From positions 1 to 49,698 of IMG/VR virus record IMGVR_UViG_3300045988_135203: a stretch of 49,698 nt of DNA; one strand, written 5' to 3'. Positions 63-47,386 of this stretch are shown one piece after another (position 1 is the first letter of the stretch; each line of letters starts with the position of its first letter). The position numbers and the translations under genes are program-made. This DNA is from a virus. Under the pieces are notes generated by a model. That model saw only the letters and a program-made list of their open reading frames with translations. It had not been told where the DNA came from and did no database searches.

Positions 63-185
63 TAAAGTAATTATAACTCGGCGGAAAATATGTCCGTATC
101 CCATATATCAAGTTTATGTTCCATTTTACCTATAACCTATAACCTAAATTTACCTTTCACGCTATAACTACTTTATTGAATTGCG

Positions 186-258
186 TGCGCCAGGCGGGAC
201 TCGAACCCGCGGTATCTTGATTAAAAGTCAAGTGCATTAGCCGCTGTGCTACTGGCGC
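186..258 (-). tRNA. tRNA-Lys (anticodon UUU)
   Basis: Minus-strand cloverleaf: acceptor GCGCCAG/CUGGCGC, T-arm GCGGGTTCGAGTCCCGC, anticodon loop CUUUUAA. Confidence 0.8.
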
Positions 259-329
259 AAATTGCGGATGACGAAACCGCAAGAACCATATGTTGTCATC
301 ATTTGGTATAGCTTATGTTTTAAGCTAAG

Positions 330-402
330 GGTGACTGGAGGGAATTGAACCCCCATATTCTCATCCACAGTGAGAAGTCTTAGCCATTAGACCACAGCCA
401 CC
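330..402 (-). tRNA. tRNA-His (anticodon GUG) with genomically encoded G-1
   Basis: Acceptor GUGGCUG/CAGUCAC, extra 5' G opposite discriminator C (bacterial-type His), D-stem GUCU/AGAC, anticodon loop CUGUGGA, T-loop GGGGGTTCAATTCCCTC. Confidence 0.8.
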
Positions 403-609
403 GTAATAGATTTTGAGGAGTTGCACCTCACTTACTCTCGTAAGAAATAAGAACAATCTAATTTATTGTTTAAAATCTATAGCAGTTCAGTTTCTGCTCT
501 ATATATTCCGTATTGCTTTCCTTCCTTTTATTAATAGTAGTCTAACGAAAAACAGCGTGAATATACTTTTATCATACTCTAACCGGTATTGAATATGAAT
601 ACTGTTAAA

Positions 610-681
610 CGAGCCAACGGGGAATCGAACCCCGACCTCTGGAGAGACAGTCCAGCACACTAGCCATTATGCTACAAGCCC
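610..681 (-). tRNA. tRNA-Asp (anticodon GUC)
   Basis: Anticodon arm CTGGA-CTGTCTC-TCCAG, T-arm CGGGGTTCGATTCCCCG. The acceptor stem has one U-U mismatch and several G-U pairs. Confidence 0.7.
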
Positions 682-792
682 TTAACAAGACAGGTTTAAT
701 TTCGCACTTAAAATCCTCAATTTTACGCTGTATTAGAATTTAAAATTTTGCAGTTCCTGTCTTTAATTTATATATTTATTATATAATATTTT

Positions 793-1098
793 TTAAATAT
801 TATCAATTAAATCTTTTCGTCCTTCCGCAATGTATTCTTGCTCTTGATTTTCAAGTTCATTGATTTTAAGCAAATCAGAATGTTTCCAATTTCTTTTTGC
901 ATAATATCTACTTTTGCGGTTTTTACTTTTTATAGAACACATAGGACATGAGCAATGAATTTTTCCTTTAGAATAACATCCATCATGGTTATAATAATCC
1001 CAACCATATTCCTTTTGACATATTCTTTTCTTTCTGCGGATATGCTTTGCTCGCTGTTTACGATAATAAGCTCTATCTCTATTAGGCAAATACATCAC
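793..1098 (-). CDS. Small basic Cys/His-rich protein (putative zinc-binding)
   Basis: 101-aa ORF with CxC...CxxC cluster and a Lys/Arg-rich composition. Confidence 0.5.
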   Translation of the reverse strand: MMYLPNRDRAYYRKQRAKHIRRKKRICQKEYGWDYYNHDGCYSKGKIHCSCPMCSIKSKNRKSRYYAKRNWKHSDLLKINELENQEQEYIAEGRKDLIDNI

Positions 1099-1203
1099 TC
1101 CTATTCTGTTTATAATTGAGGGGCCTGCTTACCCCCTCATGCAGCAGTTAGTCCCTGCTTGCCGAAGCCAGTTATTTAAGGGAACTGTTAGATTGCACCC
1201 TGA

Positions 1204-1285
1204 TGGGGGAGGTAGGACTCGAACCTACGATGTTTCTTTGTCACGGTTTTACAGACCGCTACCCTCGCCACTAGGTTACTCCCCC
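1204..1285 (-). tRNA. tRNA-Tyr (anticodon GUA), type II with long variable arm
   Basis: Acceptor GGGGGAG/CUCCCCC, anticodon arm GCGGT-CTGTAAA-ACCGT, long variable arm, T-arm GTAGGTTCGAGTCCTAC. Confidence 0.75.
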
Positions 1286-1594
1286 ATAAACATATTAAGT
1301 TGGACAGCTATCCTTTAGAAGACGATGCTTCTGGAGCCTTAATAACACCCCAAGTAGTTTACCATCTCTACAAACTACCAAAGATTAGAACAATTTTCTC
1401 GTTTTGTTCATTAACGTCAGATTTTTCAGCTACGAGGTATCTGAAACATACCTTTCATTAAATTCATCCCAAGTGAAGATTTATGCCTTCAACTTAAAGA
1501 TATAGACTGTGTACTTTAGTCTGCCATTCACTTCACTCTCTGAATGGTCAACCCGTAATCGAGGCTTCGGGCGCTACCCGTGCATGTCGATTAA

Positions 1595-1665
1595 CACGCC
1601 CTCAAGGAATCGAACCCTGATTAACCGGGTTGGAGCCGGCTGTAATACCATTATACCAAAGGCGC
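1595..1665 (-). tRNA. tRNA-Trp (anticodon CCA)
   Basis: Anticodon arm GCCGG-CTCCAAC-CCGGT, T-arm CAGGGTTCGATTCCTTG, D-loop TATAATGGTAT. Confidence 0.7.
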
Positions 1666-1900
1666 AAACATGATAGACACCACACTCTCTATCACTCTCA
1701 TACTTAGCAATGAGTTTTCTGCAACGTGGAAGCTATACTCACTTTTTGTCAAGCTAAAGAAGTACAAGTAAAAAGCTACATTTACCTACATTCAGGTGTA
1801 GTTCCCTCTTCAACTACAAAGCCAAGTCATATAAAATGTATAGACTAAACATTCTATATCTAATAAATTTAAAGACGTCCTCAATATATTAGATATATAA

Positions 1901-1971
1901 TTGCGGAGACGGGATTTGAACCCGTGTCTCTAGGTTATGAGCCTAGCAAGGAGCCACTCCTCTACTCCGCA
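1901..1971 (-). tRNA. tRNA-Met (anticodon CAU; elongator Met or Ile2-lysidine type cannot be distinguished)
   Basis: Acceptor UGCGGAG/CUCCGCA, anticodon arm CTAGG-CTCATAA-CCTAG, T-arm CACGGGTTCAAATCCCGTC. Confidence 0.7.
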
Positions 1972-2065
1972 CTATTTTCAAGACACCTTTTGTCAACCGA
2001 AATTTTATTTTGAAGGTCTATTATATTGCTGAAAAGTGTCTTTTTTATTTATTTTGTATATATAT

Positions 2066-2094
2066 ATTATATATTATTTTTTATAAAAAATCAA
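2066..2094 (-). promoter_or_regulatory. Class A promoter upstream of the tRNA cluster
   Basis: Conserved module AAATTGATTTTTTATAAAAAATAATATATAATATATAC. Confidence 0.55.
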
Positions 2095-2242
2095 TTTAAA
2101 ATTTTTAACCAAGACATTTGTAAAGGTTTTGTTTTTACGGTTACTAAACTCTTTACTCTAAACCTACCGTCAATCATCAACCCAAATGATAATCTTTTTC
2201 TTGTTAGAAAATATTTGCTGTTTAAATGTCTTTTATATACTT

Positions 2243-2271
2243 ATTATATATTATTTTTTATAAAAAATCAA
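2243..2271 (-). promoter_or_regulatory. Class A promoter (tandem with 2066-2094)
   Basis: TTGATT-N17-TATAAT with conserved AT-rich spacer. Confidence 0.55.
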
Positions 2272-2273
2272 TG

Positions 2274-2621
2274 TTAAGAAAATGACCAGCCATTTTTCTT
2301 AATAATTCTCATCATATTATCCCTACCAACAGGATTCATAGAATGAATATGAAATGTAGCATCAATTTGCCATCCATCTACATGCTGCTTTTCTTCAAGC
2401 CATTCAAGAAACTTAATATAATCTCCCCCAAACATCCGCATTTCACCCGCATCATGGTCAAGACTTACATCTCCAAGATATAAACATCTTTTTCCAGAGT
2501 AAGAAAGCTCTGTCTCCGCTGTACAAGCAATAATCGCCGCATATACACTTCTAAGCCATGTATAATCAGAAGGTGCGGGTCTCACATCATCAATCCACAG
2601 ATTTGTCTTCATACTCTCCAT
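2274..2621 (-). CDS. Hypothetical protein
   Basis: 115-aa ORF. A class A promoter lies downstream of its stop and the gene is tightly packed with 2590-2865. Confidence 0.55.
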   Translation of the reverse strand: MESMKTNLWIDDVRPAPSDYTWLRSVYAAIIACTAETELSYSGKRCLYLGDVSLDHDAGEMRMFGGDYIKFLEWLEEKQHVDGWQIDATFHIHSMNPVGRDNMMRIIKKNGWSFS

Positions 2622-2865
2622 CCTCTTTCATAACTTCAATTATACCCTGATGTATAAGATAACGTTCCCATTTTTCTGGATGCTCATTACTTCCTACTAA
2701 AGTAGTAAGCATTTCTGGGGTGTATAATCCTAAATCTCCAGGAGGATTAATACTAAATATATTTGCCGCTTTCTTTACTGCAGCTCTGAGCATTCTTACT
2801 TTTTTCTCTAAGTGAAGAATTTGTGTATACAAAACTTCTTCTCTCGTCTTGGTTAAATCACTCAT
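2590..2865 (-). CDS. Hypothetical protein
   Basis: 91-aa ORF directly preceded by a class A promoter at 2898-2926. Confidence 0.6.
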   Translation of the reverse strand: MSDLTKTREEVLYTQILHLEKKVRMLRAAVKKAANIFSINPPGDLGLYTPEMLTTLVGSNEHPEKWERYLIHQGIIEVMKEDGEYEDKSVD

Positions 2866-2897
2866 TTTTATTTACCCTCTCTTAACTTTCTATAAAT

Positions 2898-2926
2898 ATT
2901 ATATTATAATTTTTATAAAAAATCAA
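2898..2926 (-). promoter_or_regulatory. Class A promoter for 2590-2865
   Basis: TTGATT-N17-TATAAT. Confidence 0.55.
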
Positions 2927-2939
2927 TTAAGAATAAAAG

Positions 2940-3488
2940 CTACTTTTCTTTCCATTGATGGCGTCTTTGGGATTTCCAGTTTCGCTCTCTAACACGATAC
3001 CAATCATCCCACCAACCATCAGGATAATCATTTCTACTACCACGGTTAAATTCCTTAAATTCAGGATTATCATACATTGCCGCAACCTGTCTAATTTTTC
3101 GTGGGCGTGTATGTGGACCACCTTTGTGTTTATGAATTCCTTCTACTGGTTCTCTGCGGAACTCACCACGATAAGTTTTGTTTTTCTTATACCTTTTCCA
3201 CCTCTGCTCAGAAGTTTCTAGTGGAAGATTTTTATACTTCTCTACCCAAAACAAATGTGCAGATTTGTAATAAATGTGCGGGTCAATCTGACGACCATAA
3301 CCATCATAATACTGGTCATTCATGCGGTCATTAACCAGAAAACCCCAAACATCTTTACGAAAACCTCTTGCTAAGTATCCAATAAATTCTCTTTCATTTT
3401 TAGCAATGCGCTGAATAGTTAAGTGCATATAGAATTTATTAAAACTATAACAATAAATTTCTTCTTTAGGCATTTCAATATTGTACAT
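2940..3488 (-). CDS. Hypothetical basic Trp/Tyr-rich protein
   Basis: 182-aa ORF with strong coding composition. Nested antisense ORFs were discarded. Confidence 0.6.
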   Translation of the reverse strand: MYNIEMPKEEIYCYSFNKFYMHLTIQRIAKNEREFIGYLARGFRKDVWGFLVNDRMNDQYYDGYGRQIDPHIYYKSAHLFWVEKYKNLPLETSEQRWKRYKKNKTYRGEFRREPVEGIHKHKGGPHTRPRKIRQVAAMYDNPEFKEFNRGSRNDYPDGWWDDWYRVRERNWKSQRRHQWKEK

Positions 3489-3541
3489 AGTAATCTCCTT
3501 TTTAAATTAAATTATTGGATAACTACCATATATCAAACTCC

Positions 3542-3745
3542 TTATGGACGAAGTATGCCTTCATCTGTCACTTCATATACATCCAAAATCTTCGTATAAT
3601 AACCTTGGAAATTTGGATATTTTTCTTTTACAAACTGAACTGCTTTATCCGCATCTGTAGTAAGTACAAAATTACACATAGCATACGTTTTCAGCATTTC
3701 ATCATCAAGGTCAAAAATAACTTTAAAAACTTTCATATTTATCAA
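3542..3745 (-). CDS. Hypothetical small protein
   Basis: 67-aa ORF with GAGG-type RBS context. Confidence 0.45.
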   Translation of the reverse strand: MINMKVFKVIFDLDDEMLKTYAMCNFVLTTDADKAVQFVKEKYPNFQGYYTKILDVYEVTDEGILRP

Positions 3746-3752
3746 CCTCCAA

Positions 3753-3874
3753 TGCCCAGAGAAGGACTTGAACCTTCACTCTAATAATAGAAACAGATTT
3801 ACGTCGCTAAATTGCAGTATAAGTATTTTACAAAACTTTTTAGCTTCTGCCGCGTCTACTTCCGCCATCTGGGC
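3753..3874 (-). tRNA. tRNA-like gene with ~45-nt insertion in the anticodon region (intron-containing, type II or pseudo-tRNA)
   Basis: Perfect acceptor GCCCAGA/TCTGGGC and T-arm GAAGGTTCAAGTCCTTC with a 3-bp D-stem. The anticodon stem GCAGA/TCTGT is separated by an AT-rich insert, and a canonical cloverleaf is only possible if this is spliced or ignored. Confidence 0.35.
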
Positions 3875-4134
3875 TTAATGATTATTCGATTGCCAATCAG
3901 GTTATCACCCTAGAAGTTTATGGACCTCCTCTTGGTGTATAAAGTCATACTCGCGGGCATTTTTAATTTCCTCTTATCTTTTTGTCCTTTATACGCTTCC
4001 AAAACCAAGCCAGGATTTACTTGCTTTACAGAAAACATTACTTTTCCAACCCTTGCAACAAAGTCACTAACGCTCTTTTAAACACTCGAATAAGCTTCAC
4101 CTATTATATTTATAGCTAGCATATCACTATAAAA

Positions 4135-4211
4135 TCCGGATTCTGGGATTCGAACCCAGGACAAACACCGCTTATAAGGCGGCCGCTCTAACCTGACTGA
4201 GCTAAACCCGG
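4135..4211 (-). tRNA. tRNA-Ile-like (anticodon UAU), 7-nt variable loop
   Basis: Typical TAGCTCAGTCAGGTTAGAGC D-arm, anticodon arm GCCGC-CTTATAA-GCGGT, T-arm CTGGGTTCGAATCCCAG. The acceptor starts with C. Confidence 0.6.
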
Positions 4212-4406: not shown

Positions 4407-4811
4407 TTAATTCTCTTTAGCTGACTCAGAATCTTCATTTGAATCAGTAATTTCCTTAACACTTTCCACAATATAATTAATAATATCTTCACTTGTTTTA
4501 CCAACAGCAGAAATATTATCTGGCGTCACAACCTGAGCTGCCATCATCTTGTAACAAGTAGTTTCTGAAGGAACCGCACAATATAAAACTCCTGCGGCGA
4601 AGATAGTAATAATACTTCTTTTAAGATAACCATACCATCTTGCCCTTTCTTCTTCACTCTCAAAATCACCTTCAGTTTCTACAATAACGAGTATAAGAGC
4701 GAGAACACCAGCTAAAATTACTCCACCAATAATTAAAACCATCGCAAGACCTCCTACTTTGTCAGCTAAACTGACAAAGTAGAACCAAATTGGACTAATA
4801 ATAGGCTTCAT
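4407..4811 (-). CDS. Membrane protein (2 predicted TM helices)
   Basis: 134-aa ORF with two hydrophobic stretches. Its start ATG abuts the TAA of the shifted ORF upstream (TAAATG). Confidence 0.6.
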   Translation of the reverse strand: MKPIISPIWFYFVSLADKVGGLAMVLIIGGVILAGVLALILVIVETEGDFESEEERARWYGYLKRSIITIFAAGVLYCAVPSETTCYKMMAAQVVTPDNISAVGKTSEDIINYIVESVKEITDSNEDSESAKEN

Positions 4812-4814
4812 TTA

Positions 4815-5186
4815 AAGAATCTCCTCAATGTCAAAATAATCTTTGTTCAGGTCAACAAGTCCATGAAGAGTTGTAGGTCTACTTATTCCTGGAATCTCAA
4901 TTATATCTACATCAGCGCAGTAATAATTATGACCCCAATCCTCAAGTCCATTAACTCTTAAGCGTGCTCCTTTCTTAATTGTATAAGTCTCTCCTTTGCT
5001 AAACTCCTCGAACTCAAAATCCTTAACAGCATATAAAGTTACAAGATTATAGTCAGCAAGAGTTTTAATATACTTTCCAAATTCTACTCCTGGGTAGAGG
5101 CTTCTGGAGTCATATTTGCAACCACTGGATTCGGAACTGTAGCTGCCTGATTCATCATCCCCATCATCATCATCATTGGAAAAAAA
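4815..5186 (-). CDS. ATG-less ORF continuing 5084-5920 in the -1 frame (candidate frameshift extension)
   Basis: About 124 sense codons with protein-like composition and no ATG/GTG/TTG start exactly fill the gap between 5084 and 4811. The frame opens directly after an in-frame UGA at a U_UUU_UUU heptamer. Confidence 0.35.
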
Positions 5187-5920
5187 TCATTGCCTTCGCT
5201 GCCTCCCATAAGAGCCATCATCATAAGCGGATTACTCATATCCAGACCAAAAGCATTTGTACCTGTACTATTCATTCCGCCCATAAGCATCATCATTGGA
5301 AGCATATCTTTCATATTACCAGAATTCTCTCCCAGGAACATCAGCGGAAGCAGGTTTCCAAAAGGCTGGTCAGCAGAAGCATTTGCACCGGAAAAATCAA
5401 TCAGTGTAACAATTTTGGTCACAAAATCAAAGCCAAACATAGATTTTGTTGGAAGAATCTCTTTTTTCTCACCTGCGGCAACATCTACTACATGAATGCC
5501 ATTATCTACAGATGTTACAAATACTGCATTGCCATTTGTATGACGAATAACATCACCAACATGAACATCTTTAATTGCACATGGCATTGCATAAATCATG
5601 CCTCTTGCATCAAAGTCAATGAGGTCAACATTAACAATCTCATTCTTCTTCTTATCATAGGAAACGATATCTCCAGCCGCATTTTTAAGTGCAATACCCA
5701 GATGACTCAGATGATATTTGTTAACCGGTCCAAACTCAAGATTTCCAAACATTTTCTTCATTTCCATAGATTTTTTCTCCTTTTTCTCTTTTCTTTCTAT
5801 TCTCTTTTTAATTTTATTAAGTTCTAACTCATTTTTCTTTTCTCTATATAGCTCTTCGCTGATAGACCCATTACAGGTACAGCCATATAGATTATTTACA
5901 TAATGAGGCGGTAAACTCAT
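5084..5920 (-). CDS. Protein with Lys-rich coiled-coil N-terminus and Met/Gly-rich C-terminus (zero-frame product)
   Basis: 278-aa ORF. The C-terminus carries MMMLMGG/MMMALMGG/MMMMMGMM repeats. Confidence 0.6.
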   Translation of the reverse strand: MSLPPHYVNNLYGCTCNGSISEELYREKKNELELNKIKKRIERKEKKEKKSMEMKKMFGNLEFGPVNKYHLSHLGIALKNAAGDIVSYDKKKNEIVNVDLIDFDARGMIYAMPCAIKDVHVGDVIRHTNGNAVFVTSVDNGIHVVDVAAGEKKEILPTKSMFGFDFVTKIVTLIDFSGANASADQPFGNLLPLMFLGENSGNMKDMLPMMMLMGGMNSTGTNAFGLDMSNPLMMMALMGGSEGNDFFPMMMMMGMMNQAATVPNPVVANMTPEASTQE

Positions 5921-14292: not shown

Positions 14293-14320
14293 AATAAAGG
14301 GTGGACTTTTGTCCACCCTT
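14285..14320 (-). terminator. Intrinsic terminator after 14319-14600
   Basis: AAGGGTGGACAAAAGTCCACCCTT hairpin followed by a U-run on the minus RNA. Confidence 0.6.
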
Positions 14321-14600
14321 AATCATTTTTATCTTTACTTAAATCTATAGATTTAAAAAAGCCTCCAATCCAACCTAGCGCACCTGCAATAATTGGTAAG
14401 TTTTCCGGTACGAAAGTTTTAGTGTTAAAAAGAGTATTTAAACTATTACATAGAATATTTCCAAAAGTAATTTTACAGAGCCAGCCTCCAAAATAACTAA
14501 TGAAAAAAGAAATCATTGGAGCAAAAATAATTAAAGCAATAACTCCAACAAAAGCCGCAATTATTCCTAATCCTTCAAAAAAATCACTATCATTCTTCAT
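14319..14600 (-). CDS. Small membrane protein (2 TM helices)
   Basis: 93 aa with hydrophobic segments, followed by an intrinsic terminator. Confidence 0.55.
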   Translation of the reverse strand: MKNDSDFFEGLGIIAAFVGVIALIIFAPMISFFISYFGGWLCKITFGNILCNSLNTLFNTKTFVPENLPIIAGALGWIGGFFKSIDLSKDKND

Positions 14601-32374: not shown

Positions 32375-32806
32375 TCAGATTTTTGTAATCCCTCTATCTC
32401 TTAAATATTCACAAAAACTGTCGGCATCCAGTAAATCCGCAAGTTCTTTAATTGTAAGATTTTCTTTCTTGTATACACAACGAAATTCAATAGGTTTAAA
32501 GTTTTTTTCTGTAATTCTGTCTCCGCCTGTATAAAAATCATCAACGTTACTAAGTACAACCATTGGTTTTCTAAACAGTGTTTTTTCAAGTCTACCGTTC
32601 ATAAAAAAACCATCTTTTACTAAACTAACAAGCTGAGGAAAATCTCTGATTAAACCTGTCCAGTTTTCAGCATCTTTTGGCTCAATGTATCTTGCGTGTC
32701 GCCAGACGCTAGTATCAACAAATTCTTTCTGTCCCTCAAGTCTGTATTCAAATCTGTAATTATAAACCTCTTTCATTTTTATTTTCCTCTCTTTCATTTG
32801 ATACAT
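32375..32806 (-). CDS. Hypothetical protein
   Basis: 143 aa with a class B promoter at 32809-32837. Confidence 0.55.
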   Translation of the reverse strand: MYQMKERKIKMKEVYNYRFEYRLEGQKEFVDTSVWRHARYIEPKDAENWTGLIRDFPQLVSLVKDGFFMNGRLEKTLFRKPMVVLSNVDDFYTGGDRITEKNFKPIEFRCVYKKENLTIKELADLLDADSFCEYLRDRGITKI

Positions 32807-37674: not shown

Positions 37675-38400
37675 TCAGATTACGGATTTTAATTTATTAA
37701 GAATATATTCATCATTTATTTTATCATAATCATAATAAGGTATTCTTATTAATAAAATATTATTTTCTTTACAATATATATCTTTTCTTTCATCTCTTAT
37801 TTGTTGAATTTTAAATTTATTTTCACCACCAAAATATTCAACTGGTCTATAATGTTGCTCACCATCATACTCAATTAATGCTATAATATTATTTTCTTTC
37901 ATAATTATAAAGTCAAATATCATAACATTATTATTTTTATCTTTTATTCTATATTGTTCTTTAAAAGATAAATTCTTGTCCGTTAAAATATTTTTAATTT
38001 TTAATTCTCCACTACTTCTTTTAGCACATCCACAAGAAATAGTTCGAGCATGACTTTGTCCCTTAAGGTGTTCAAGTCTTACTTCAAAAGGTTTTGAACC
38101 GCAATCACATTGTACTTTTACATAAGTTTTATTATTTTTACATGGAGCATTTCCAATTATTGTTAATAAACCATATTTATCTCCAATTTCATATTTACGT
38201 CTATCTTTATCTTTACAATTATTACAACTTTTAGGATTTTTGTCTAAATCGCCTTTTCTTACACTAGAAATTTTTCCACAATTAAGACATTCACAAATCC
38301 AAAAAGTTTCATGTGATTTTGATTTAGGATTTTTATCTCTTTCAATTACTTTCCAACAGCCATGTATTTGTCCTGAATAATCTTTTAATTTTCTTCCCAT
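37675..38400 (-). CDS. Free-standing PD-(D/E)XK (Vsr/DUF559-like) homing-endonuclease-like protein with N-terminal zinc fingers
   Basis: The C-terminal FDFIIMKENNIIALIEYDGEQHY...IRIPY matches RxDF...IEvDGxxH nuclease cores and is homologous to 45384-45740. The N-terminus is multi-Cys. It sits in an extremely AT-rich, gene-poor segment. Confidence 0.6.
   Translation of the reverse strand: MGRKLKDYSGQIHGCWKVIERDKNPKSKSHETFWICECLNCGKISSVRKGDLDKNPKSCNNCKDKDRRKYEIGDKYGLLTIIGNAPCKNNKTYVKVQCDCGSKPFEVRLEHLKGQSHARTISCGCAKRSSGELKIKNILTDKNLSFKEQYRIKDKNNNVMIFDFIIMKENNIIALIEYDGEQHYRPVEYFGGENKFKIQQIRDERKDIYCKENNILLIRIPYYDYDKINDEYILNKLKSVI
37675..38400 (-). mobile_element. Putative free-standing homing endonuclease locus
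   Basis: The surrounding region 37540-38550 is gene-poor, differs in composition from neighbouring early genes and lacks the class B promoter pattern. Confidence 0.4.
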
Positions 38401-38853: not shown

Positions 38854-39105
38854 TTATTTTTCCCCATTCTTTCTATTCTCCTTAATCTTTTTTAATTCAA
38901 TTTCAACTGATTCTAAAAGTCTAATTGCGGATTCATCATCCAAAAAATCACTAACATTTATTGTATTTGGAATTGCAATAACATGTTTATCAGAAAACAC
39001 TTCTGAAACATGTTTAAATACTCCATAGACTTCATCAATACTATTTTCGCCAAGAGTATAAGTAATAATTACATAATCTCTTTTTTCCTCTGTTTTAATT
39101 TTCAT
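38854..39105 (-). CDS. Hypothetical protein
   Basis: 83-aa ORF whose stop overlaps the start of the next gene. Confidence 0.5.
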   Translation of the reverse strand: MKIKTEEKRDYVIITYTLGENSIDEVYGVFKHVSEVFSDKHVIAIPNTINVSDFLDDESAIRLLESVEIELKKIKENRKNGEK

Positions 39106-39401
39106 CTTATAATTACCGTTCCATGCTTTCCTTCTTTTCTCAACCTCTCCAAAACTGGATGGCAGGAATTTTTTTCATTCATAAATACAATAGCAAAATC
39201 AAGTTCTTTAATATAATCATTAAATGCGCCAAAAAAATATTTTTTGCCGGAACCATTATTTTCTGCCCATTTATCTCCCAAAGAATTGGGAGAACACACT
39301 ATATTAAATAAATATGTCCCCTTTATTTCAATAAGCTCATTTAATCTTTTGTCCAAAAGGTCATAATCATCAAGTGTGCCTCCAATTATTCCTACATTCA
39401 T
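39102..39401 (-). CDS. SLOG/DUF2493-like Rossmann-fold protein (YpsA/DprA-like)
   Basis: VGIIGGT ... LGDKWAENNG ... ELDFAIVFMNE ... GTVII pattern typical of DUF2493 SLOG domains. Confidence 0.5.
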   Translation of the reverse strand: MNVGIIGGTLDDYDLLDKRLNELIEIKGTYLFNIVCSPNSLGDKWAENNGSGKKYFFGAFNDYIKELDFAIVFMNEKNSCHPVLERLRKEGKHGTVIIR

Positions 39402-40267
39402 GCGATTGGCTCAATAAAAATTAACTTATCAATATAATCTCTATCCGCACCTTTGAAAATAGGAATTTTATAATCTATTTTCCATTTGCGGCGAACAATT
39501 ATTCTTTCACCAATTTGTTCTCCAAAATAAACATTTGGCTCTTTAATTGTTTCTTTAATTGTTTCTTTTTCTTCTATTTTGATACATGCGGTACCGCGTT
39601 TACATGGAATTGTAAAGTCATTCCAATTAATTCCACATTGAGTCATTAGCATATCTTGAATATCATTACAAGTTTTATCTTTAAGTTTGGCATGTGAAAA
39701 ACAAGCTTGTCCCACCATTTGAATACTATTCCGCGTTGCATCCAATTGCCGCCAATAAATAAGATTAGTTACTTCTTCTTTTGGAATATTAAAACATCTT
39801 GCGTCAAACATTGCTCCTTTTTCTGCGGCATTTACATATCTTTCAATAAGCCTTTTATTTCCCTCTATAAGAGGGTCATGAGTCGAATTATATTTAATTA
39901 TATTCTCAGAAAAATATTTATTAAAAGCCATTGTTGCCATAGAAGCTGATACGGAAGCCATTTTCTGAACCTCATAATTAAACCAAGCCTCTGAGGTTAA
40001 CTTTTGGTAATCAGTTAAAATTAAAGTAATTTCATCTGATTGAGTATATCCAAAAATACAACCCTGAATATTTTCACAAAGATACTTCATTGTCCTTTGC
40101 ATCGTATCCATTAATACAGGATCAAATGGTTTCTGAAAGCCTCGTGTAAAAGTATGAAAAGCTTTTCCATCAAGCCTAATAGCTACTGGCATGCGGCGAA
40201 GTAATTGTGTTTTTGCGGGATTTTCATAAAAATCTTTCATTCTTGCGGCAAGTTCACTATTATCCAT
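39398..40267 (-). CDS. Thg1-like protein (tRNA-His guanylyltransferase family 3'-5' nucleotidyltransferase)
   Basis: VAIRLDGKAFHTFT, YTQSDEITLIL and IYWRQLDATRNSI match the Thg1/TLP core motifs (RLDG-x-FH-x-F, YGQSDE, WRQ-D). Confidence 0.75.
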   Translation of the reverse strand: MDNSELAARMKDFYENPAKTQLLRRMPVAIRLDGKAFHTFTRGFQKPFDPVLMDTMQRTMKYLCENIQGCIFGYTQSDEITLILTDYQKLTSEAWFNYEVQKMASVSASMATMAFNKYFSENIIKYNSTHDPLIEGNKRLIERYVNAAEKGAMFDARCFNIPKEEVTNLIYWRQLDATRNSIQMVGQACFSHAKLKDKTCNDIQDMLMTQCGINWNDFTIPCKRGTACIKIEEKETIKETIKEPNVYFGEQIGERIIVRRKWKIDYKIPIFKGADRDYIDKLIFIEPIA

Positions 40268-40301: not shown

Positions 40302-40330
40302 ATTATAATTTAATTTTTAAATTTTGTCCA
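40302..40330 (-). promoter_or_regulatory. Promoter for the Thg1-like gene
   Basis: TGGACA-N17-TATAAT in a class A-like AT-rich context. Confidence 0.45.
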
Positions 40331-40632
40331 TTCTGATCTTTTACTGTGACCTCTGTATGGTCTTCACTAATATTTGTTTCTTTTAAAAACCAATGCCATA
40401 CATAAGGTTCTTCAACTGTGGTTCCAATATATTGAGTATTTTGTAACACTTTTTCGGGAATCGGTTGTCCTGTTCCAATAGGATTTACAAAAAAACTTCT
40501 AATAGGAGCTGCAGTATCAGTTAAAGCCCAAAGATAAGTGCGGCCATTTATTTCTTTTACATTAAGAAATTTAACAAGTGGTAAATTAAGCACTCCAATA
40601 TCATTTAAACAATATTTAAGAATTCTTTTCAT
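40303..40632 (-). CDS. Hypothetical protein
   Basis: 109-aa ORF. Confidence 0.5.
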   Translation of the reverse strand: MKRILKYCLNDIGVLNLPLVKFLNVKEINGRTYLWALTDTAAPIRSFFVNPIGTGQPIPEKVLQNTQYIGTTVEEPYVWHWFLKETNISEDHTEVTVKDQNGQNLKIKL

Positions 40633-41252: not shown

Positions 41253-42311
41253 ATGATTAAATTAGACTATACTATACAAACTCCAGAAGAAAGAAACGAA
41301 TTAGTGAAAAAAATTTTGGAAGAAACTCCTGATCCTAGTGAGAGATATTTAGAAATTTTGGCTGACTACCTCGTTCTTTGTATGGAGAAACAAGAGAAGA
41401 AGCAGAAACAAATTTTAACAGAAAATCGAATGACAACTGTTAATAAGAGAGAAACTTCTTATGAAGGTCTTGTTTCCCAATTAGAAAATGGCGAAGATGG
41501 TATCTATAACCTAATAAATGAAAGTAAAACAACAATATTTCAACCAAAAGTGACAATAACAAAGAAAGATTTAGAAGAAATACCTTATTTGAGACAATTA
41601 CGTGATGCTATCAATAGTTGGGAAATAAAACTTAAAAAAGCGCAGGGGCGCGATGCGTATATAATTAAAAAAGCATTGATCGAAATGCGTAAAGACCAAT
41701 ATGTAATAAAAAATGCTTACCGCAAACCTATTATCTTTAATAAAATTAGTCGTTCTAATTTTGCATCTAGATTGGTTGAAGATTTTACATTAGATGAAAA
41801 TAATTATATTGTTCCTAGTGGGGTTTCTTTATGTGACCCCGCGGTTTGTTCATTAATTCTTTGTAATTATTCACAGCTTAAAGAAGAAAGTTGGGGAAAA
41901 TTTGAAGGTGATTTATGGTACCTTATGGAATCATTTGATAAAGTATCTACAGCCGCTTTAGAAGAGTATCCACTATATGAAGAAATAGTAAAATGTAAAA
42001 TAGATGGATTGCAGAATATAGAAATACAAAAAATACTAAAACAAAAATACGATACTACTCATAGCTTAGAATATATTTCTAGCTTATGGAGAAAAAAGAT
42101 TCCAAATCTTATTGCCTCGAAAGCAGAAGATGTAGAATTAAGTTGGTATTTTTTAAATACCGAAAAAGGCAAATATAAAAGATGTAGTCGATGCGGGAAA
42201 ATTAAACTTGCTCATAATAAATATTTTAGTAAAAATAAAACTAGCAAAGATGGCTGGTATTCTATTTGTAAAGAATGTAGAAATAAAAAAAATAAGGACA
42301 AAAAGAAATAA
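41253..42311 (+). CDS. Hypothetical protein with C-terminal zinc ribbon (first gene of the plus-strand late module)
   Basis: 352 aa with CSRCGK...CKEC, a GGAGG RBS, and a plus promoter TTGACT-N17-TATAAT at 41201-41229. Confidence 0.6.
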   Translation: MIKLDYTIQTPEERNELVKKILEETPDPSERYLEILADYLVLCMEKQEKKQKQILTENRMTTVNKRETSYEGLVSQLENGEDGIYNLINESKTTIFQPKVTITKKDLEEIPYLRQLRDAINSWEIKLKKAQGRDAYIIKKALIEMRKDQYVIKNAYRKPIIFNKISRSNFASRLVEDFTLDENNYIVPSGVSLCDPAVCSLILCNYSQLKEESWGKFEGDLWYLMESFDKVSTAALEEYPLYEEIVKCKIDGLQNIEIQKILKQKYDTTHSLEYISSLWRKKIPNLIASKAEDVELSWYFLNTEKGKYKRCSRCGKIKLAHNKYFSKNKTSKDGWYSICKECRNKKNKDKKK

Positions 42312-43567: not shown

Positions 43568-45298
43568 ATGGCATTACAAGATTTATTAGCTCTCTCTCAA
43601 TCCAGAGATAAAATTGGTTTATCTGAGGAACGTGTCAATGCTATTATTCCAGTAGCAAGGCAATATATAAGTTTCTGGAGAGAATATCCAGATATTTTTA
43701 TTGATTTTTTATTGAAAGATCGCAATCCACAAAATTTTAAATTCTTCTTTTATCAAAGAGTATTCTTGCGGATTTGTATGCGACATCAATATGTGTATGC
43801 AGTTTTCCCACGTGCATATTCAAAATCTTTTCTATCTATGATGGTATTAATGTGTCGTTGTGTATTATATCCTGGATGTAAATTATTCGTTACTTCTGGT
43901 GGTAAAGAGCAGGCTGCAGCAATTGTAAAAGAAAAAGTTCAAGAAATTTGTACATTGATACCCGCATTTAAAAATGAAATTGATTGGAATCGTGGTGTAA
44001 CTCTTGAAGGTAAAGATTATTGTAAATATGTGTTTAAAAATGGTTCATATTTTGATAATATTGCAGCTAGAGAAAGTTCGCGTGGTAAACGTCGTCATGG
44101 TGGACTTATAGAAGAGTGTGTAGGTGTTGATGGACAAATTCTTTCAGAAGTTATCATTCCAACGATGAATATTTCTCGAATGTGTATGGATGGTTCTACC
44201 CATCCTGAAGAGCAACTTAATAAAAGTCAAGTTTATATTACAACCGCAGGATATAAGAATACATATCCTTATGACAAACTAATTCAGTTACTGGTATGGC
44301 AAATAGTTAAACCAGAAAAATCAATGATAATGGGTGGTACATATCGTATTCCTGTATTAGTTAAATTGCTTGATAAGAATTTTATTAAAGACCTAAAAAT
44401 GGATGGTACTTTTAATGAAAGTTCTTTTGCTCGTGAATATGAATCTGTTTGGTCTGGTACCATTGAAGATGCTTTCTTTAGTTCTGAAGCATTCGACCGT
44501 AATAGAATTCTTAAACAACCAGAAAAAGAAGCCTCTGGCCGTTCAAGCAAAAATGCTTATTATATATTATCTATGGATGTTGGTCGTAAAGGTTGTGATT
44601 CTGTAGTATGCGTAATTAAAGTAACTCCACGTTCTCAAGACGTGTCTATGAAACAATTAGTTAATATTTATACATTTCATGATGACCATTTTGAAGACCA
44701 AGCTATTAAAGTAAAACGTTTATTTTATAGATATAAAGCCCGCAGATTAGTTATTGATGCTAATGGTATTGGTATTGGACTTATGGATTATTTGGTTAAA
44801 TCTCAAATCGATCCAGATACTAATGAATTTTTTGCGGATTTTGGGGTTTATAATGATGAAGAAAAATTTTATAAGAAGTTTCAAACTGTTGACTGTGAGC
44901 AAGATGCGATATATATGATAAAAGCTAATGCACCTATAAATACAGAAGCGCATGCTAATATGCAATCACAGCTTTCTTCTGGTAAAATTAAATTTCTTGA
45001 AGATGAACGTATAGCAAAAACTAAATTGCTTGGTACTAAAATGGGTCAGACAATGACTCCAGAAAAACGTGCAGAATACTTAAGACCTTTTACATTAACT
45101 TCTATTCTTAAAGAAGAACTTATGAACCTTCGTGAAGAAAATGAAGGAGTTAATATTATCCTTAAACAAGCCAACAGGTCAATTAAAAAAGATAAATTTT
45201 CCGCACTTGAATATGGCTTATATTATATAAAAACAGAAGAAGATTCAAAAAAGAAGAAAAAACGTTTTGTTGCAAGTGAATGGAAATTCTTTAATTAA
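43568..45298 (+). CDS. terL: Terminase large subunit
   Basis: 576 aa. The N-terminal region is ATPase-like (VFPRAYSKSF Walker A-like, GGLIEE) and the C-terminal region is an RNase-H-like nuclease (LSMDVGRKGCDSVVCV, VIDANGIGIGL). It sits immediately upstream of a portal-sized gene. Confidence 0.75.
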   Translation: MALQDLLALSQSRDKIGLSEERVNAIIPVARQYISFWREYPDIFIDFLLKDRNPQNFKFFFYQRVFLRICMRHQYVYAVFPRAYSKSFLSMMVLMCRCVLYPGCKLFVTSGGKEQAAAIVKEKVQEICTLIPAFKNEIDWNRGVTLEGKDYCKYVFKNGSYFDNIAARESSRGKRRHGGLIEECVGVDGQILSEVIIPTMNISRMCMDGSTHPEEQLNKSQVYITTAGYKNTYPYDKLIQLLVWQIVKPEKSMIMGGTYRIPVLVKLLDKNFIKDLKMDGTFNESSFAREYESVWSGTIEDAFFSSEAFDRNRILKQPEKEASGRSSKNAYYILSMDVGRKGCDSVVCVIKVTPRSQDVSMKQLVNIYTFHDDHFEDQAIKVKRLFYRYKARRLVIDANGIGIGLMDYLVKSQIDPDTNEFFADFGVYNDEEKFYKKFQTVDCEQDAIYMIKANAPINTEAHANMQSQLSSGKIKFLEDERIAKTKLLGTKMGQTMTPEKRAEYLRPFTLTSILKEELMNLREENEGVNIILKQANRSIKKDKFSALEYGLYYIKTEEDSKKKKKRFVASEWKFFN

Positions 45299-45383: not shown

Positions 45384-45740
45384 ATGCGCGCTTCTAGAGG
45401 AGAAATAAAGATAGAAGAAATATTACAAAATGCAGAATTAAATTTTAAAGAAGAATATATATTCCCAGACCTTAAAAGCTCTAGTGGTAGACCATTACGT
45501 TTTGATTTTGTTGTATTTGATGATGATGGTAAAATTGATTTTCTTATTGAATATCAAGGTAAACAACATTATGAAGCAAGTTCAAAATTTGGTGGAAAAA
45601 GAGGATTATATCAGCAGCAATTTAATGATAATAAAAAACGTAGATTTTGCGCTTTACATGGACTTACTTTAATAGAAATTCCTTATACAGAAGAACATCT
45701 TATATCCTACGATTATATAATGGAAAAAGCTGGATATTAA
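45384..45740 (+). CDS. PD-(D/E)XK (Vsr/DUF559-like) homing-endonuclease-like protein between TerL and portal
   Basis: LRFDFVVFDDDGKIDFLIEYQGKQHY...IEIPY, homologous to the nuclease domain of 37675-38400, with a GGAGG RBS. Confidence 0.6.
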   Translation: MRASRGEIKIEEILQNAELNFKEEYIFPDLKSSSGRPLRFDFVVFDDDGKIDFLIEYQGKQHYEASSKFGGKRGLYQQQFNDNKKRRFCALHGLTLIEIPYTEEHLISYDYIMEKAGY

Positions 45741-45748
45741 GGAGGTAA

Positions 45749-47386
45749 TTGGTCTTGATAGATAGACAAAGACAAGAACAGATTCGCTCCAAAGGCTTTA
45801 GTATAGTAGATACAAGACGTGGAAATGAAGCACCAATAGAGTATGGAAGAATTAAAGTTGGAACTAAGACATTAGATGATGCTACTTTAAATTTAGGTTC
45901 TCTTAAAAAAATTAATCCTACATATGCGGATAAGCGCTGGATTTTAAGAGCTTTAGCAGAAAATAATGTTCCAGTTCTTCGTGAAATTTCTAATTACTTT
46001 TATAGAACTAGTGGCATATATTCTCGAGTATGCAATTATATTGCTACTCTATATAGATATGATTGGTATATTGTACCAGAAGTTTTAGATGATAAGATTA
46101 AAGAAGAAAAAATTTTAAAAGAATTTAATTATCTTTTAGATTATCTTGATAATACTCATATTAAAAAAATGTGCGCGGATATAGCTTTAGCAGTCGTCAA
46201 AGATGGTGCATACTATGGCTATTTGGTAGATGGAACAGATGGTTTGATGCTTCAACAGTTACCTATTAACTATTGTCGTTCTAGATATAATGTTGGCATG
46301 AATCCTGCTGTTGAATTTAATATGAAATTTTTTGATGACCATTTTAGAGATATTAATTATCGTATGAGAGTTCTTAAAATGTTTCCAAAAGAATTTCAAA
46401 AAGGTTATTTACTTTATAAACAAGGTAAATTACCAGTAGATAATATGATGGATCCTTTTGGAACCTGGTACTTACTTGACCCAGAATCAACTGTTAAATT
46501 TAATTTTAATAATAATGATATTCCAATGTTTGTAAATGCTATTCCAAATTTACTTGATTTGGATGCAGCACAGGATTTGGACCGCCGCAAGCAAATGCAA
46601 CAATTATTAAAAATTGTTATTCAAAAACTTCCACTAGATAAAAATGGGGATTTAATTTTTGATGTTGATGAAGCTAGGGATATACATAATAATGCGGTTG
46701 AAATGCTTTGTCGCGCTATTGGTGTAGATGTATTAACTACATTTGCAGATGTTAGTGTAGAAGATATGTCAGATAGTAATACTACCACTACTAAAGATGA
46801 TTTGGAAAAAGTAGAAAGAACATTATTTAATTCTCTTGGTATTTCTCAGAATATTTTTAATACTGATGGTAATTTATCTCTAGAGAAATCTATTTTAAAT
46901 GATGAGGCAACTACTAGAAATATTCTTTTACAATTTCATATATTCTTTGATAGGATTACTCGTGCTAAATGTAGTAATAAAAGAAAATTTGTGTTTAAAT
47001 TTTTTATGCTAGAAACTACTCAATATAATTATCAAACTTTATCTAAAATGTATAAAGAACAGGTACAAATTGGTTATTCTAAAATGTTGCCACAGATTGC
47101 ACTTGGACATTCTCAAAGTTCTATTATCCATACAGCTCATTTTGAAAATGAAGTATTGCATTTGAGTTCTATTATGATTCCACCATTAATGAGTTCTACA
47201 TTAAATGGAGAAGATATTTTGGGCACAAATAAACAAGATAATACAAATAAAAATCAAAATAATACGACAAATAATTCTGGAAAAAATATTAATCAAAAAC
47301 AGTCTAGTGGTGAAGCCGGTAGACCAGAAAAAGATGATAGTCAAAAAAGTGAAAAAACAATTCAGAATCGTGAATCAATGAGCTAG
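45749..47386 (+). CDS. Putative portal protein
   Basis: 545 aa, the gene size and position after TerL typical of portals. The start is uncertain (TTG at 45749 or 45755 after GGAGG). The assignment rests on position only. Confidence 0.45.
   Translation: MVLIDRQRQEQIRSKGFSIVDTRRGNEAPIEYGRIKVGTKTLDDATLNLGSLKKINPTYADKRWILRALAENNVPVLREISNYFYRTSGIYSRVCNYIATLYRYDWYIVPEVLDDKIKEEKILKEFNYLLDYLDNTHIKKMCADIALAVVKDGAYYGYLVDGTDGLMLQQLPINYCRSRYNVGMNPAVEFNMKFFDDHFRDINYRMRVLKMFPKEFQKGYLLYKQGKLPVDNMMDPFGTWYLLDPESTVKFNFNNNDIPMFVNAIPNLLDLDAAQDLDRRKQMQQLLKIVIQKLPLDKNGDLIFDVDEARDIHNNAVEMLCRAIGVDVLTTFADVSVEDMSDSNTTTTKDDLEKVERTLFNSLGISQNIFNTDGNLSLEKSILNDEATTRNILLQFHIFFDRITRAKCSNKRKFVFKFFMLETTQYNYQTLSKMYKEQVQIGYSKMLPQIALGHSQSSIIHTAHFENEVLHLSSIMIPPLMSSTLNGEDILGTNKQDNTNKNQNNTTNNSGKNINQKQSSGEAGRPEKDDSQKSEKTIQNRESMS

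Follow-up and report, generated by a model that had tools for sequence, protein, structure and literature searches.

A conserved candidate site for programmed -1 ribosomal frameshifting in an uncharacterised gut-phage protein family

Introduction

Frameshifting appends C-terminal domains to a number of phage structural proteins, among them the gene 10A/10B products of T3 and T7 and proteins of Lactobacillus phage A2 and of the Listeria phages A118, A500 and PSA (PMC5009743); appended Ig-like domains were surveyed by Fraser et al. (summarised in PMC5009743). Here we analyse a 49,698-nucleotide (nt) stretch of viral DNA, positions 1 to 49,698 of IMG/VR record IMGVR_UViG_3300045988_135203, referred to below as the window. 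Its source is a large human-gut phage that is uncultured. Towards the 3' end of open reading frame (ORF) 5920..5084, a U_UUU_UUU heptamer probably serves as the site of a programmed -1 ribosomal frameshift (PRF). As in the T3/T7, A2 and A118 group, the shift would occur late in the ORF and yield, from one gene, a minor isoform with an extra C-terminal beta-domain.

The tail assembly chaperone G/GT frameshift of tailed phages was reportedly described by Xu, Hendrix and Duda in 2004. In E. coli dnaX, the Shine-Dalgarno (SD)-like element has a spacing of 10 nt. The mechanism itself is known, and the locus described here is, judged by its sequence and that of its relatives, very probably an unannotated, well-conserved new example of it in an uncharacterised and very common gut-phage family.

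Results

Anatomy of the locus

All gene coordinates are positions in the window, and the gene, the heptamer and the extension lie on the minus strand. The elements of the locus are as follows.

5084..5920, minus: zero-frame ORF, 278 amino acids (aa), with its TAG stop at 5086..5084
5186..5180, minus: slippery heptamer U_UUU_UUU (T7), in zero-frame phase GA_U UUU UUU
5186..4815, minus: -1 frame ORF of 124 codons, with its TAA stop at 4814..4812
5084..5186, minus: dual-coding overlap, reading FFPMMMMMGMMNQ...TQE* in the zero frame and FFSNDDDDGDDESGSYSSESSGCKYDSRSLYPGV in the -1 frame
5202..5206, minus: SD-like GGAGG, candidate 5' stimulator, 15 nt 5' of the heptamer
4407..4811, minus: next gene, encoding a predicted membrane protein (phrog_3878), whose ATG (4811..4809) abuts the TAA of the extension

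The zero-frame ORF has the C-terminus ...DFFPMMMMMGMMNQAATVPNPVVANMTPEASTQE, also given as ...GGSEGNDFFPMMMMMGMMNQAATVPNPVVANMTPEASTQE-TAG. Upstream of the heptamer the -1 frame is closed by many stops; it opens directly after the TGA at 5189..5187 and runs for 124 codons in which ATG, GTG and TTG were sought and none was found, with non-canonical ATT and ATA codons occurring inside it. A preliminary description of this stretch had proposed a -1 frameshift at the U7 run giving a C-terminally extended protein. Its account of the locus is confirmed for the Met-rich end of gene 5084-5920, for the start-less -1 ORF of about 124 codons that opens after a UGA at the heptamer, and for the junction of its TAA with the ATG of the next gene. 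The space between the two genes is indeed filled by the -1 ORF, although the distance from the zero-frame stop to the next start is 272 nt and not the 270 nt given. The proposed frameshift itself draws support from conservation, purifying selection and heptamer replacement, as set out below.

The favoured mechanism is tandem tRNA-Phe slippage on U_UUU_UUU at 5186..5180. The majority of ribosomes would stay in frame and produce the 278-aa protein, with its helix, beta-barrel core and Met-rich tail. Some would move back one base with their Phe-tRNAs on UUU UUU, read UCC (5180..5178) as the next codon and continue for 122 codons to the TAA. The predicted trans-frame product of 247 + 122 = 369 aa, whose junction would read ...GSEGNDFFSNDDDDGDDE... 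(also written ...GGSEGNDFFSNDDDD...), would carry a disordered acidic linker and an SH3-like barrel in place of the last Met-rich repeat. As in dnaX, GGAGG would pair with the tail of the 16S rRNA in the ribosome that is translating the message and may assist the shift, here without a 3' structure.

An open frame of this kind is rarely obtained by chance: when the 372 nt were shuffled 20,000 times by mononucleotide, 1 shuffle was stop-free in that frame (about 5e-5), and in neighbouring genes stops make up 5-19% of off-frame codons. Other in-phase T_TTT_TTT sites in the window serve as controls.

14319-14600, minus: control ORF with in-phase T_TTT_TTT
32375-32806, minus: control ORF with in-phase T_TTT_TTT
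39102-39401, minus: control ORF with in-phase T_TTT_TTT
40303-40632, minus: control ORF with in-phase T_TTT_TTT

At these four sites a -1 stop follows after 0, 3, 3 and 25 codons, compared with 122 open codons at the locus, and a search for GGAGG upstream of each of the four found none.

Conservation of the split arrangement

The conceptual fused product, used as a query, returned 1268 homologues, and an exhaustive HMMER search returned 1315 clusters at 50% identity. The best 120 of the 1268 homologues are 204-298 aa long and cover the upstream part only; among the HMMER matches listed, each stops at query residue 240-247, that is, at D-F-F. A [DN]FF motif followed by a Met-rich tail is present in 119 of the 120 closest clusters, the remaining one being truncated, and no protein joining the zero-frame part to the extension was found among 5.8 billion clustered proteins. 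The comparison of fused and split forms in related phages that the preliminary description had called for thus returns 119 split clusters out of 120 and no fused one. With the extension as query, only fragments of 62-151 aa were recovered (5 matches with a single sequence, 34 with a multi-lineage profile).

At the nucleotide level, 18 IMG/VR loci were retrieved, of which 16 (L001-L016) show the arrangement, together with 41 metagenome loci, 26 of them complete at an identity of at least 53%. The upstream parts of L001-L016 are 59-88% identical, except in L016, a truncated recombinant. In all 16, GAT TTT TTT is in phase, and the slip leads into a -1 ORF of 86-144 codons that has no start; this arrangement is kept even as the identity of the extension falls from 86% to a level undetectable by tblastn. 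Among the 26 metagenome loci, 25 have exactly T7 and one has C_CCT_TTT, and in 25 of the 26 the -1 ORF extends 83-156 codons past the zero-frame stop. Taken together, an in-phase heptamer is found in 42 of 42 loci at this identity and an intact -1 ORF in 41 of 42, the exception being L043. The tract is exactly T7 in 39 of the 42, across many samples and assemblers; the other three are L008 and two loci with C_CCT_TTT, namely L056 and, among the Logan loci, L021. In L008, eight T's result from a CCG-to-TCG (C-to-T) substitution that keeps the frames, and T8 by insertion occurs in none of the 42. As a rule, then, the run is neither A6 nor A8, the two lengths at which the preliminary description would have seen a simple sequencing error. 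The same U7 pattern recurs in the more distant L019, L020 and L023.

Relatives at 48% identity or less (L017, L018, L059, L063-L069, L071-L073) end in ...MLPLLLMMNMKK* and lack both heptamer and extension, as do the cultured-phage homologues, phage G gp39 and vB_BceM_WH1 gp208. Most of the wider family has D[ML]LP at the position where this clade has DFFP. Because this motif prevails in the wider family and the distant relatives lack both elements, the slippery site is a derived feature that accompanies the extension.

Selection on the -1 ORF

Substitution patterns were measured in the region beyond the zero-frame stop as the ratio of nonsynonymous to synonymous rates (dN/dS). The window and L001, with 38 differences over 270 nt, have a dN/dS of 0.09 in the extension frame, compared with 1.0-1.5 in the other two frames. 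The pairs L005-L006 and L009-L010 give 0.06 and 0.14, with the other frames at about 1; the L011 clade evolves faster, at 0.5-0.85 in the extension. Differences in extension length between lineages are multiples of three throughout. The -1 ORF is protein-coding and under purifying selection.

Replacement of the heptamer

In three lineages the U7 run is replaced by another heptamer. C_CCT_TTT is present in L021/L022, where it encodes I-P-F, and in L056, where it encodes N-P-F; L024 has A_AAT_TTT, encoding E-N-F. These heptamers sit at the homologous position, share the zero-frame phase and fall within the overlap, and the C_CC part requires rare codons (ATC accounts for 7% of Ile and AAC for 12% of Asn codons). 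With only four U's in a row, they fall short of what polymerase slippage needs, yet the sequences are canonical tandem-slippage motifs, which argues for ribosomal over transcriptional slippage. Substitution of one such heptamer for another at the same place and phase is the chief ground for favouring slippage by the ribosome.

Candidate stimulators

Every PRF-type locus, the 26 metagenome loci at 53% identity or above included, has GGAGG, GGGAG, GAGGA or GGGGGA 15 nt 5' of the heptamer, and GGAGG(N)AGC...U7 is the sole conserved island at the RNA level. Synonymous codon identity is 0.80 in codons 237-247, compared with 0.61 in the core (p = 0.007). The Ser241 codon is AGC in 14 of the 14 sequences with Ser at that position, a codon that makes up 6% of Ser codons here. 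In L009 a Gly-Gly pair is changed to Gly-Arg (GGG AGA) and the purine motif is still kept. By analogy with dnaX (PMC5009743), GGAGG is a candidate 5' stimulator. We infer the occurrence and efficiency of the shift, the role of GGAGG in it and a need for both isoforms in a set ratio.

Evidence against the frameshift

A number of observations weigh against a programmed frameshift at this site. The conservation of GAU UUU UUU follows in part from the D-F-F residues and codon bias, with an expectation of about 0.6 per independent lineage; the GC content of the window is 32%, and TTT makes up 86% of Phe codons. U7 is not avoided in this genome either, as in-phase T_TTT_TTT occurs at 5 sites in about 32 kb of window ORFs. 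In-phase X_XXY_YYZ heptamers number roughly 90 in the same ORFs, and rarity of the heptamer was dropped as an argument, U7 being neither rare nor avoided. The spacing of GGAGG, at 15 nt, is longer than the 10 nt of dnaX.

No sign of a 3' stimulator was found. Single-sequence folds 3' of the heptamer in five lineages are no better than those of shuffled sequences (z -0.2 to +0.9), the RNAalifold consensus on eight lineages reaches -0.64 kcal/mol with zero covariation, and an Rfam scan of the region returned no family. The folds gave no stem-loop or pseudoknot 5-9 nt past the heptamer, although no explicit search for pseudoknots was made; the downstream pseudoknot suggested in the preliminary description thus finds no support in folds, RNAalifold or Rfam, within that same limit. 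In addition, ribosomes of E. coli shift less readily on U_UUU_UUU than on A_AAA_AAG (PMC5009743), and for this reason a low, set isoform ratio is likely.

Certain lineages depart from the arrangement. In L043 (1836-2290), a further indel in the acidic linker takes the SH3-like domain off the -1 frame; the copy is decaying, or else it was wrongly assembled. Two Logan contigs (L031:1085-1483 and L032:1103-1492) have T6 instead of T7. There the upstream ORF terminates after DFF and the extension is a free-standing ORF (MIFSD...), which starts at the ATG of A-ATG-AT (overlapping AAT GAT) with GGAGG 11 nt upstream. Both are 1.5-kb contigs from one sample each, nested in T7 lineages. The ATG that they use is missing in many T7 lineages (AAC GAT, AAA GAT, AAT AAT), and GGAGG is always retained. 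L031 and L032 may be genuine variants with a split gene, or else errors in the homopolymer. A split into two independent genes, the second with a proper start, which the preliminary description had named as the outcome that would speak against a frameshift, is found in these rare T6 variants only. Finally, a distant clade consisting of L025-L028 (about 1935-2373) and L060 has a conserved, protein-like -1 ORF reaching about 70 codons past the stop, with a frame overlap of 60 or more codons. At the homologous site, L025, L026 and L028 have no canonical X_XXY_YYZ (AAT CTT TTA / AGC ATT CTT); T_TTT_TTA in L027 and A_AAT_TTA in L060 are the sole canonical heptamers of this clade.

Alternative explanations

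The same extended protein could arise at the level of transcription, if programmed slippage added an extra U on the T7/A7 tract and the resulting U8 mRNAs encoded the 369-aa product. In its favour, the run is homopolymeric, the U7 sequence alone cannot separate the two mechanisms, as both would yield an identical product, and T-tract length varies in the DNA of two contigs. We nevertheless regard this as improbable. L021, L056 and L024 keep the arrangement with runs of 4 U's, the conserved SD-like element has a known role in ribosomal and not in polymerase slippage, and the eight T's of L008 arise by substitution with the frames unchanged. Known bacterial cases of transcriptional slippage typically use runs of about 9 or more, and the tract here, at 7 nt, falls below that length. 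A somewhat smaller chance still is given to a homopolymer switch or error in the DNA, in which the true gene would be fused (T8) or split in two (T6) and T7 would be an artefact or a phase-variable state. T7 is dominant in the loci at 53% identity or above and in L019, L020 and L023, there are neither T8 insertions nor, in 5.8 billion clusters, fused proteins, and lineages with a non-homopolymer heptamer share the arrangement. The two independent T6 contigs, in which the extension gains an ATG with GGAGG 11 nt upstream, fit such a switch, although they are single-sample contigs of 1.5 kb nested in T7 lineages, and their ATG is missing from many T7 lineages where GGAGG is always present.

Independent translation of the -1 ORF as a separate small SH3 protein, through a non-canonical start or reinitiation, is very improbable. 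In most lineages it is precisely at the heptamer that the -1 frame opens, and the conserved acidic linker between heptamer and domain is sensible only in a fusion. An internal ATG, GTG or TTG does exist in some lineages, where fragments of 62-94 aa are called, but these starts vary in position and would cost the predicted fold its helix and first strands; the -1 ORF of the window has none of the three codons and offers only ATT and ATA. That the -1 ORF is an unexpressed remnant of a decaying domain or gene is the least credible of these explanations, and barely so. The frame-breaking indel of L043 and the dN/dS of 0.5-0.85 in the L011 clade would suit decay, but three clades have values of 0.06-0.14, 41 of 42 loci keep the ORF intact over deep divergence, the indels between lineages are all multiples of three, and a frame this open would arise by chance with a probability of about 5e-5. 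Ribosomal slippage on U_UUU_UUU therefore remains the probable explanation.

An elaboration of the ribosomal frameshift that takes in the T6 contigs is a two-way device, which we consider unlikely, if less so than the rivals above. With T7, GGAGG would stimulate the frameshift and fix the ratio of Met-tailed to SH3-tailed forms of a membrane-active, virion-associated protein with an SH3b-like tether to the Gram-positive wall; with T6, GGAGG would act as the ribosome-binding site of a free SH3 protein. If true, this would represent a natural reversible intermediate between gene fusion and fission, and a case of frameshifting stimulated by an SD element only, without 3' structure, in a Clostridia-type host.

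Protein products

The two predicted isoforms share their N-terminal regions and differ in what follows the shift site.

5750..5863, minus: variable Lys/Glu-rich N-terminal helix, residues about 20-57, from an AlphaFold2 (AF2) model
5396..5743, minus: beta-rich core at residues about 60-175, conserved and characteristic of the family
5147..5365, minus: Met-rich repeats, PFGNLLPLMF ... LPMMMLMGG ... NPLMMMALMGG ... DFFPMMMMMGMMN
5097..5186, minus: linker formed by residues 1-30 of the extension, acidic and disordered, with a predicted local distance difference test score (pLDDT) below 50
4815..5096, minus: SH3-like beta-barrel of the extension, predicted to consist of one helix and seven strands

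Many homologues begin only at MEMKKMFGN (residue 52). The core resembles two small SH3/Tudor/KOW-like barrels. The Met-rich repeats, with the family consensus NPMMMYFLMKD..DMLPLMFMMNQNK, are modelled by AF2 as low-confidence helices. The last of them lies 3' of the shift site and would be lost in the frameshift product, in which PMMMMMGMMN... would be replaced by DDDDGDDE... and the SH3-like domain. The Met run and the Asp run are written in the same letters, (AUG)n of frame 0 being (GAU)n in frame -1, and the pair illustrates the constraint that overlapping frames impose.

An acidic linker is found in the extension of every lineage, and the extensions share a common plan in which it is followed by a domain of about 90 residues ending in G-[YLM]-[VI]-x-L-N-x-D. 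Structure modelling predicts an SH3 beta-barrel fold for this domain. None of the SH3 Pfam families matched ten extension sequences of different lineages at E <= 1, a profile search of the PDB with the extension returned noise only, and comparison of both parts and of ten long family members with Pfam and PHROG yielded no informative family. The domain may anchor some of the molecules to the cell wall or to a partner.

Relatives of the zero-frame protein include Bacillus phage G gp39 and vB_BceM_WH1 gp208. The homologue in the Bacillus phage vB_BceM_WH1, at 29% identity, is annotated as 'virion structural protein', the lone hint of a place in the virion; the phage G literature does not cover gp39, and no proteomic support for virion association was found there. 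Many members of the wider family (P0132, P0137, P0145, P0151, P0172, P0232 and others, as well as L070) have Cys/His-rich tails after the Met-rich repeats, for example HECKCGGNCGEHH or CNCDCHNGDNHQ. Together with the MxxM-type repeats, these tails hint at metal binding in the wider family.

Genome context and genetic code

The gene is part of a long block on the minus strand, together with 7 tRNA genes, a peptidase-like gene, a membrane protein gene and many small ORFs. When the neighbours were scanned against Pfam and PHROG, no informative family emerged; the membrane-protein neighbour belongs to phrog_3878, whose function is uncharacterised. Other features of the window are listed here.

185-4211: cluster of 7 tRNA genes (Lys, His, Asp, Tyr, Trp, Met, Ile-TAT)
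329-401, minus: tRNA-His gene, one of the 7
4826..4821, minus: GAGGAG Shine-Dalgarno of the phrog_3878 gene, 9 nt before its ATG and inside the last codons of the extension (ATT GAG GAG ATT CTT)
37675-38400, minus: HNH/homing-endonuclease gene
39398-40267, minus: Thg1-like tRNA-His guanylyltransferase (phrog_4717, E = 4e-85)
41253-42311: sigma-factor-like gene with an HNH-like C-terminus
43568-45298: terminase-like gene
45384-45740, plus: HNH/homing-endonuclease gene between the terminase-like and portal genes
45749-47386: portal gene

The placement of GAGGAG may explain the conserved ...IEE C-terminus of the extension. The position of this SD in the end of the extension also suggests that translation of the phrog_3878 gene is coupled to the -1 frame.

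Related contigs are 31-196 kb long. The portal protein is 55% identical to that of a faecal contig and 39% identical to that of phAss-1, with distant similarity to Enterococcus and Bacillus myophages; a DNA search of the region against 50,697 phage genomes gave no match. phAss-1, the nearest named relative, reassigns TAG to Gln (PMC10607447). TAG reassignment was considered for the present phage and rejected, with no sign of it in the window, which makes up about a quarter to a third of the genome. Under the standard code the terminase and portal genes are intact, a second stop comes within 0-17 codons after TAG stops, and none of the 7 tRNAs of the window is a suppressor. The zero-frame stop is TAG in most lineages, including L001-L008 and L011-L016. 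Readthrough of TAG, if any, would add 14 residues to the zero-frame product and leave the -1 ORF unaffected.

Discussion

Gene callers pass over the 122-codon extension systematically, and each database entry of the family (over 1,000 gut-virome sequences) breaks off at the zero-frame stop or is a fragment of 62-151 aa labelled 'hypothetical protein'. Recognition of the frameshift would correct the annotation of a common gut-phage gene and expose a hidden SH3-like domain. It would also add a deeply conserved bacterial-type -1 PRF beyond the tail-chaperone and capsid examples. The natural U_UUU_UUU, C_CCU_UUU and A_AAU_UUU variants, combined with a 5' SD-like element and no 3' structure, would make the locus a compact Bacillota test case for SD-stimulated frameshifting.

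Comparison with known systems

The locus resembles E. coli dnaX (A_AAA_AAG) in the proposed -1 tandem slippage on X_XXY_YYZ with a conserved upstream SD-like element. It differs in its heptamer, U_UUU_UUU, in an SD spacing of 15 instead of 10 nt, and in the 3' hairpin, which dnaX has and which was not found here. In dnaX the shift truncates the product, whereas here it would lengthen it.

With the G/GT frameshift the locus has in common a conserved -1 PRF, here a probable one, in a double-stranded DNA phage, a short and an extended protein, and an arrangement that outlasts sequence divergence. The proteins here are larger, however, and differ in architecture. Identity with the tail assembly chaperones was considered and rejected, there being no Pfam or PHROG match to chaperones and the gene lying elsewhere than between the genes for tail tube and tape measure.

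In its predicted fold, the extension recalls the SH3b wall-binding domains of endolysins and NlpC/P60 hydrolases; unlike these, the extension has no match to an SH3 Pfam profile, and eukaryotic SH3 domains score equally well.

As in the T3/T7 10A/10B, A2 and A118 group, the appended domain is fast-evolving and is absent from some relatives. In contrast to that group, the carrier is a protein of an uncharacterised family and not a capsid or tail-tube protein, and its gene is located among tRNA genes and small ORFs, outside the head/tail module. The extension is predicted to be SH3-like, unlike the Ig-like appendages, and it would replace a Met-rich tail instead of merely being added to the end of the protein.

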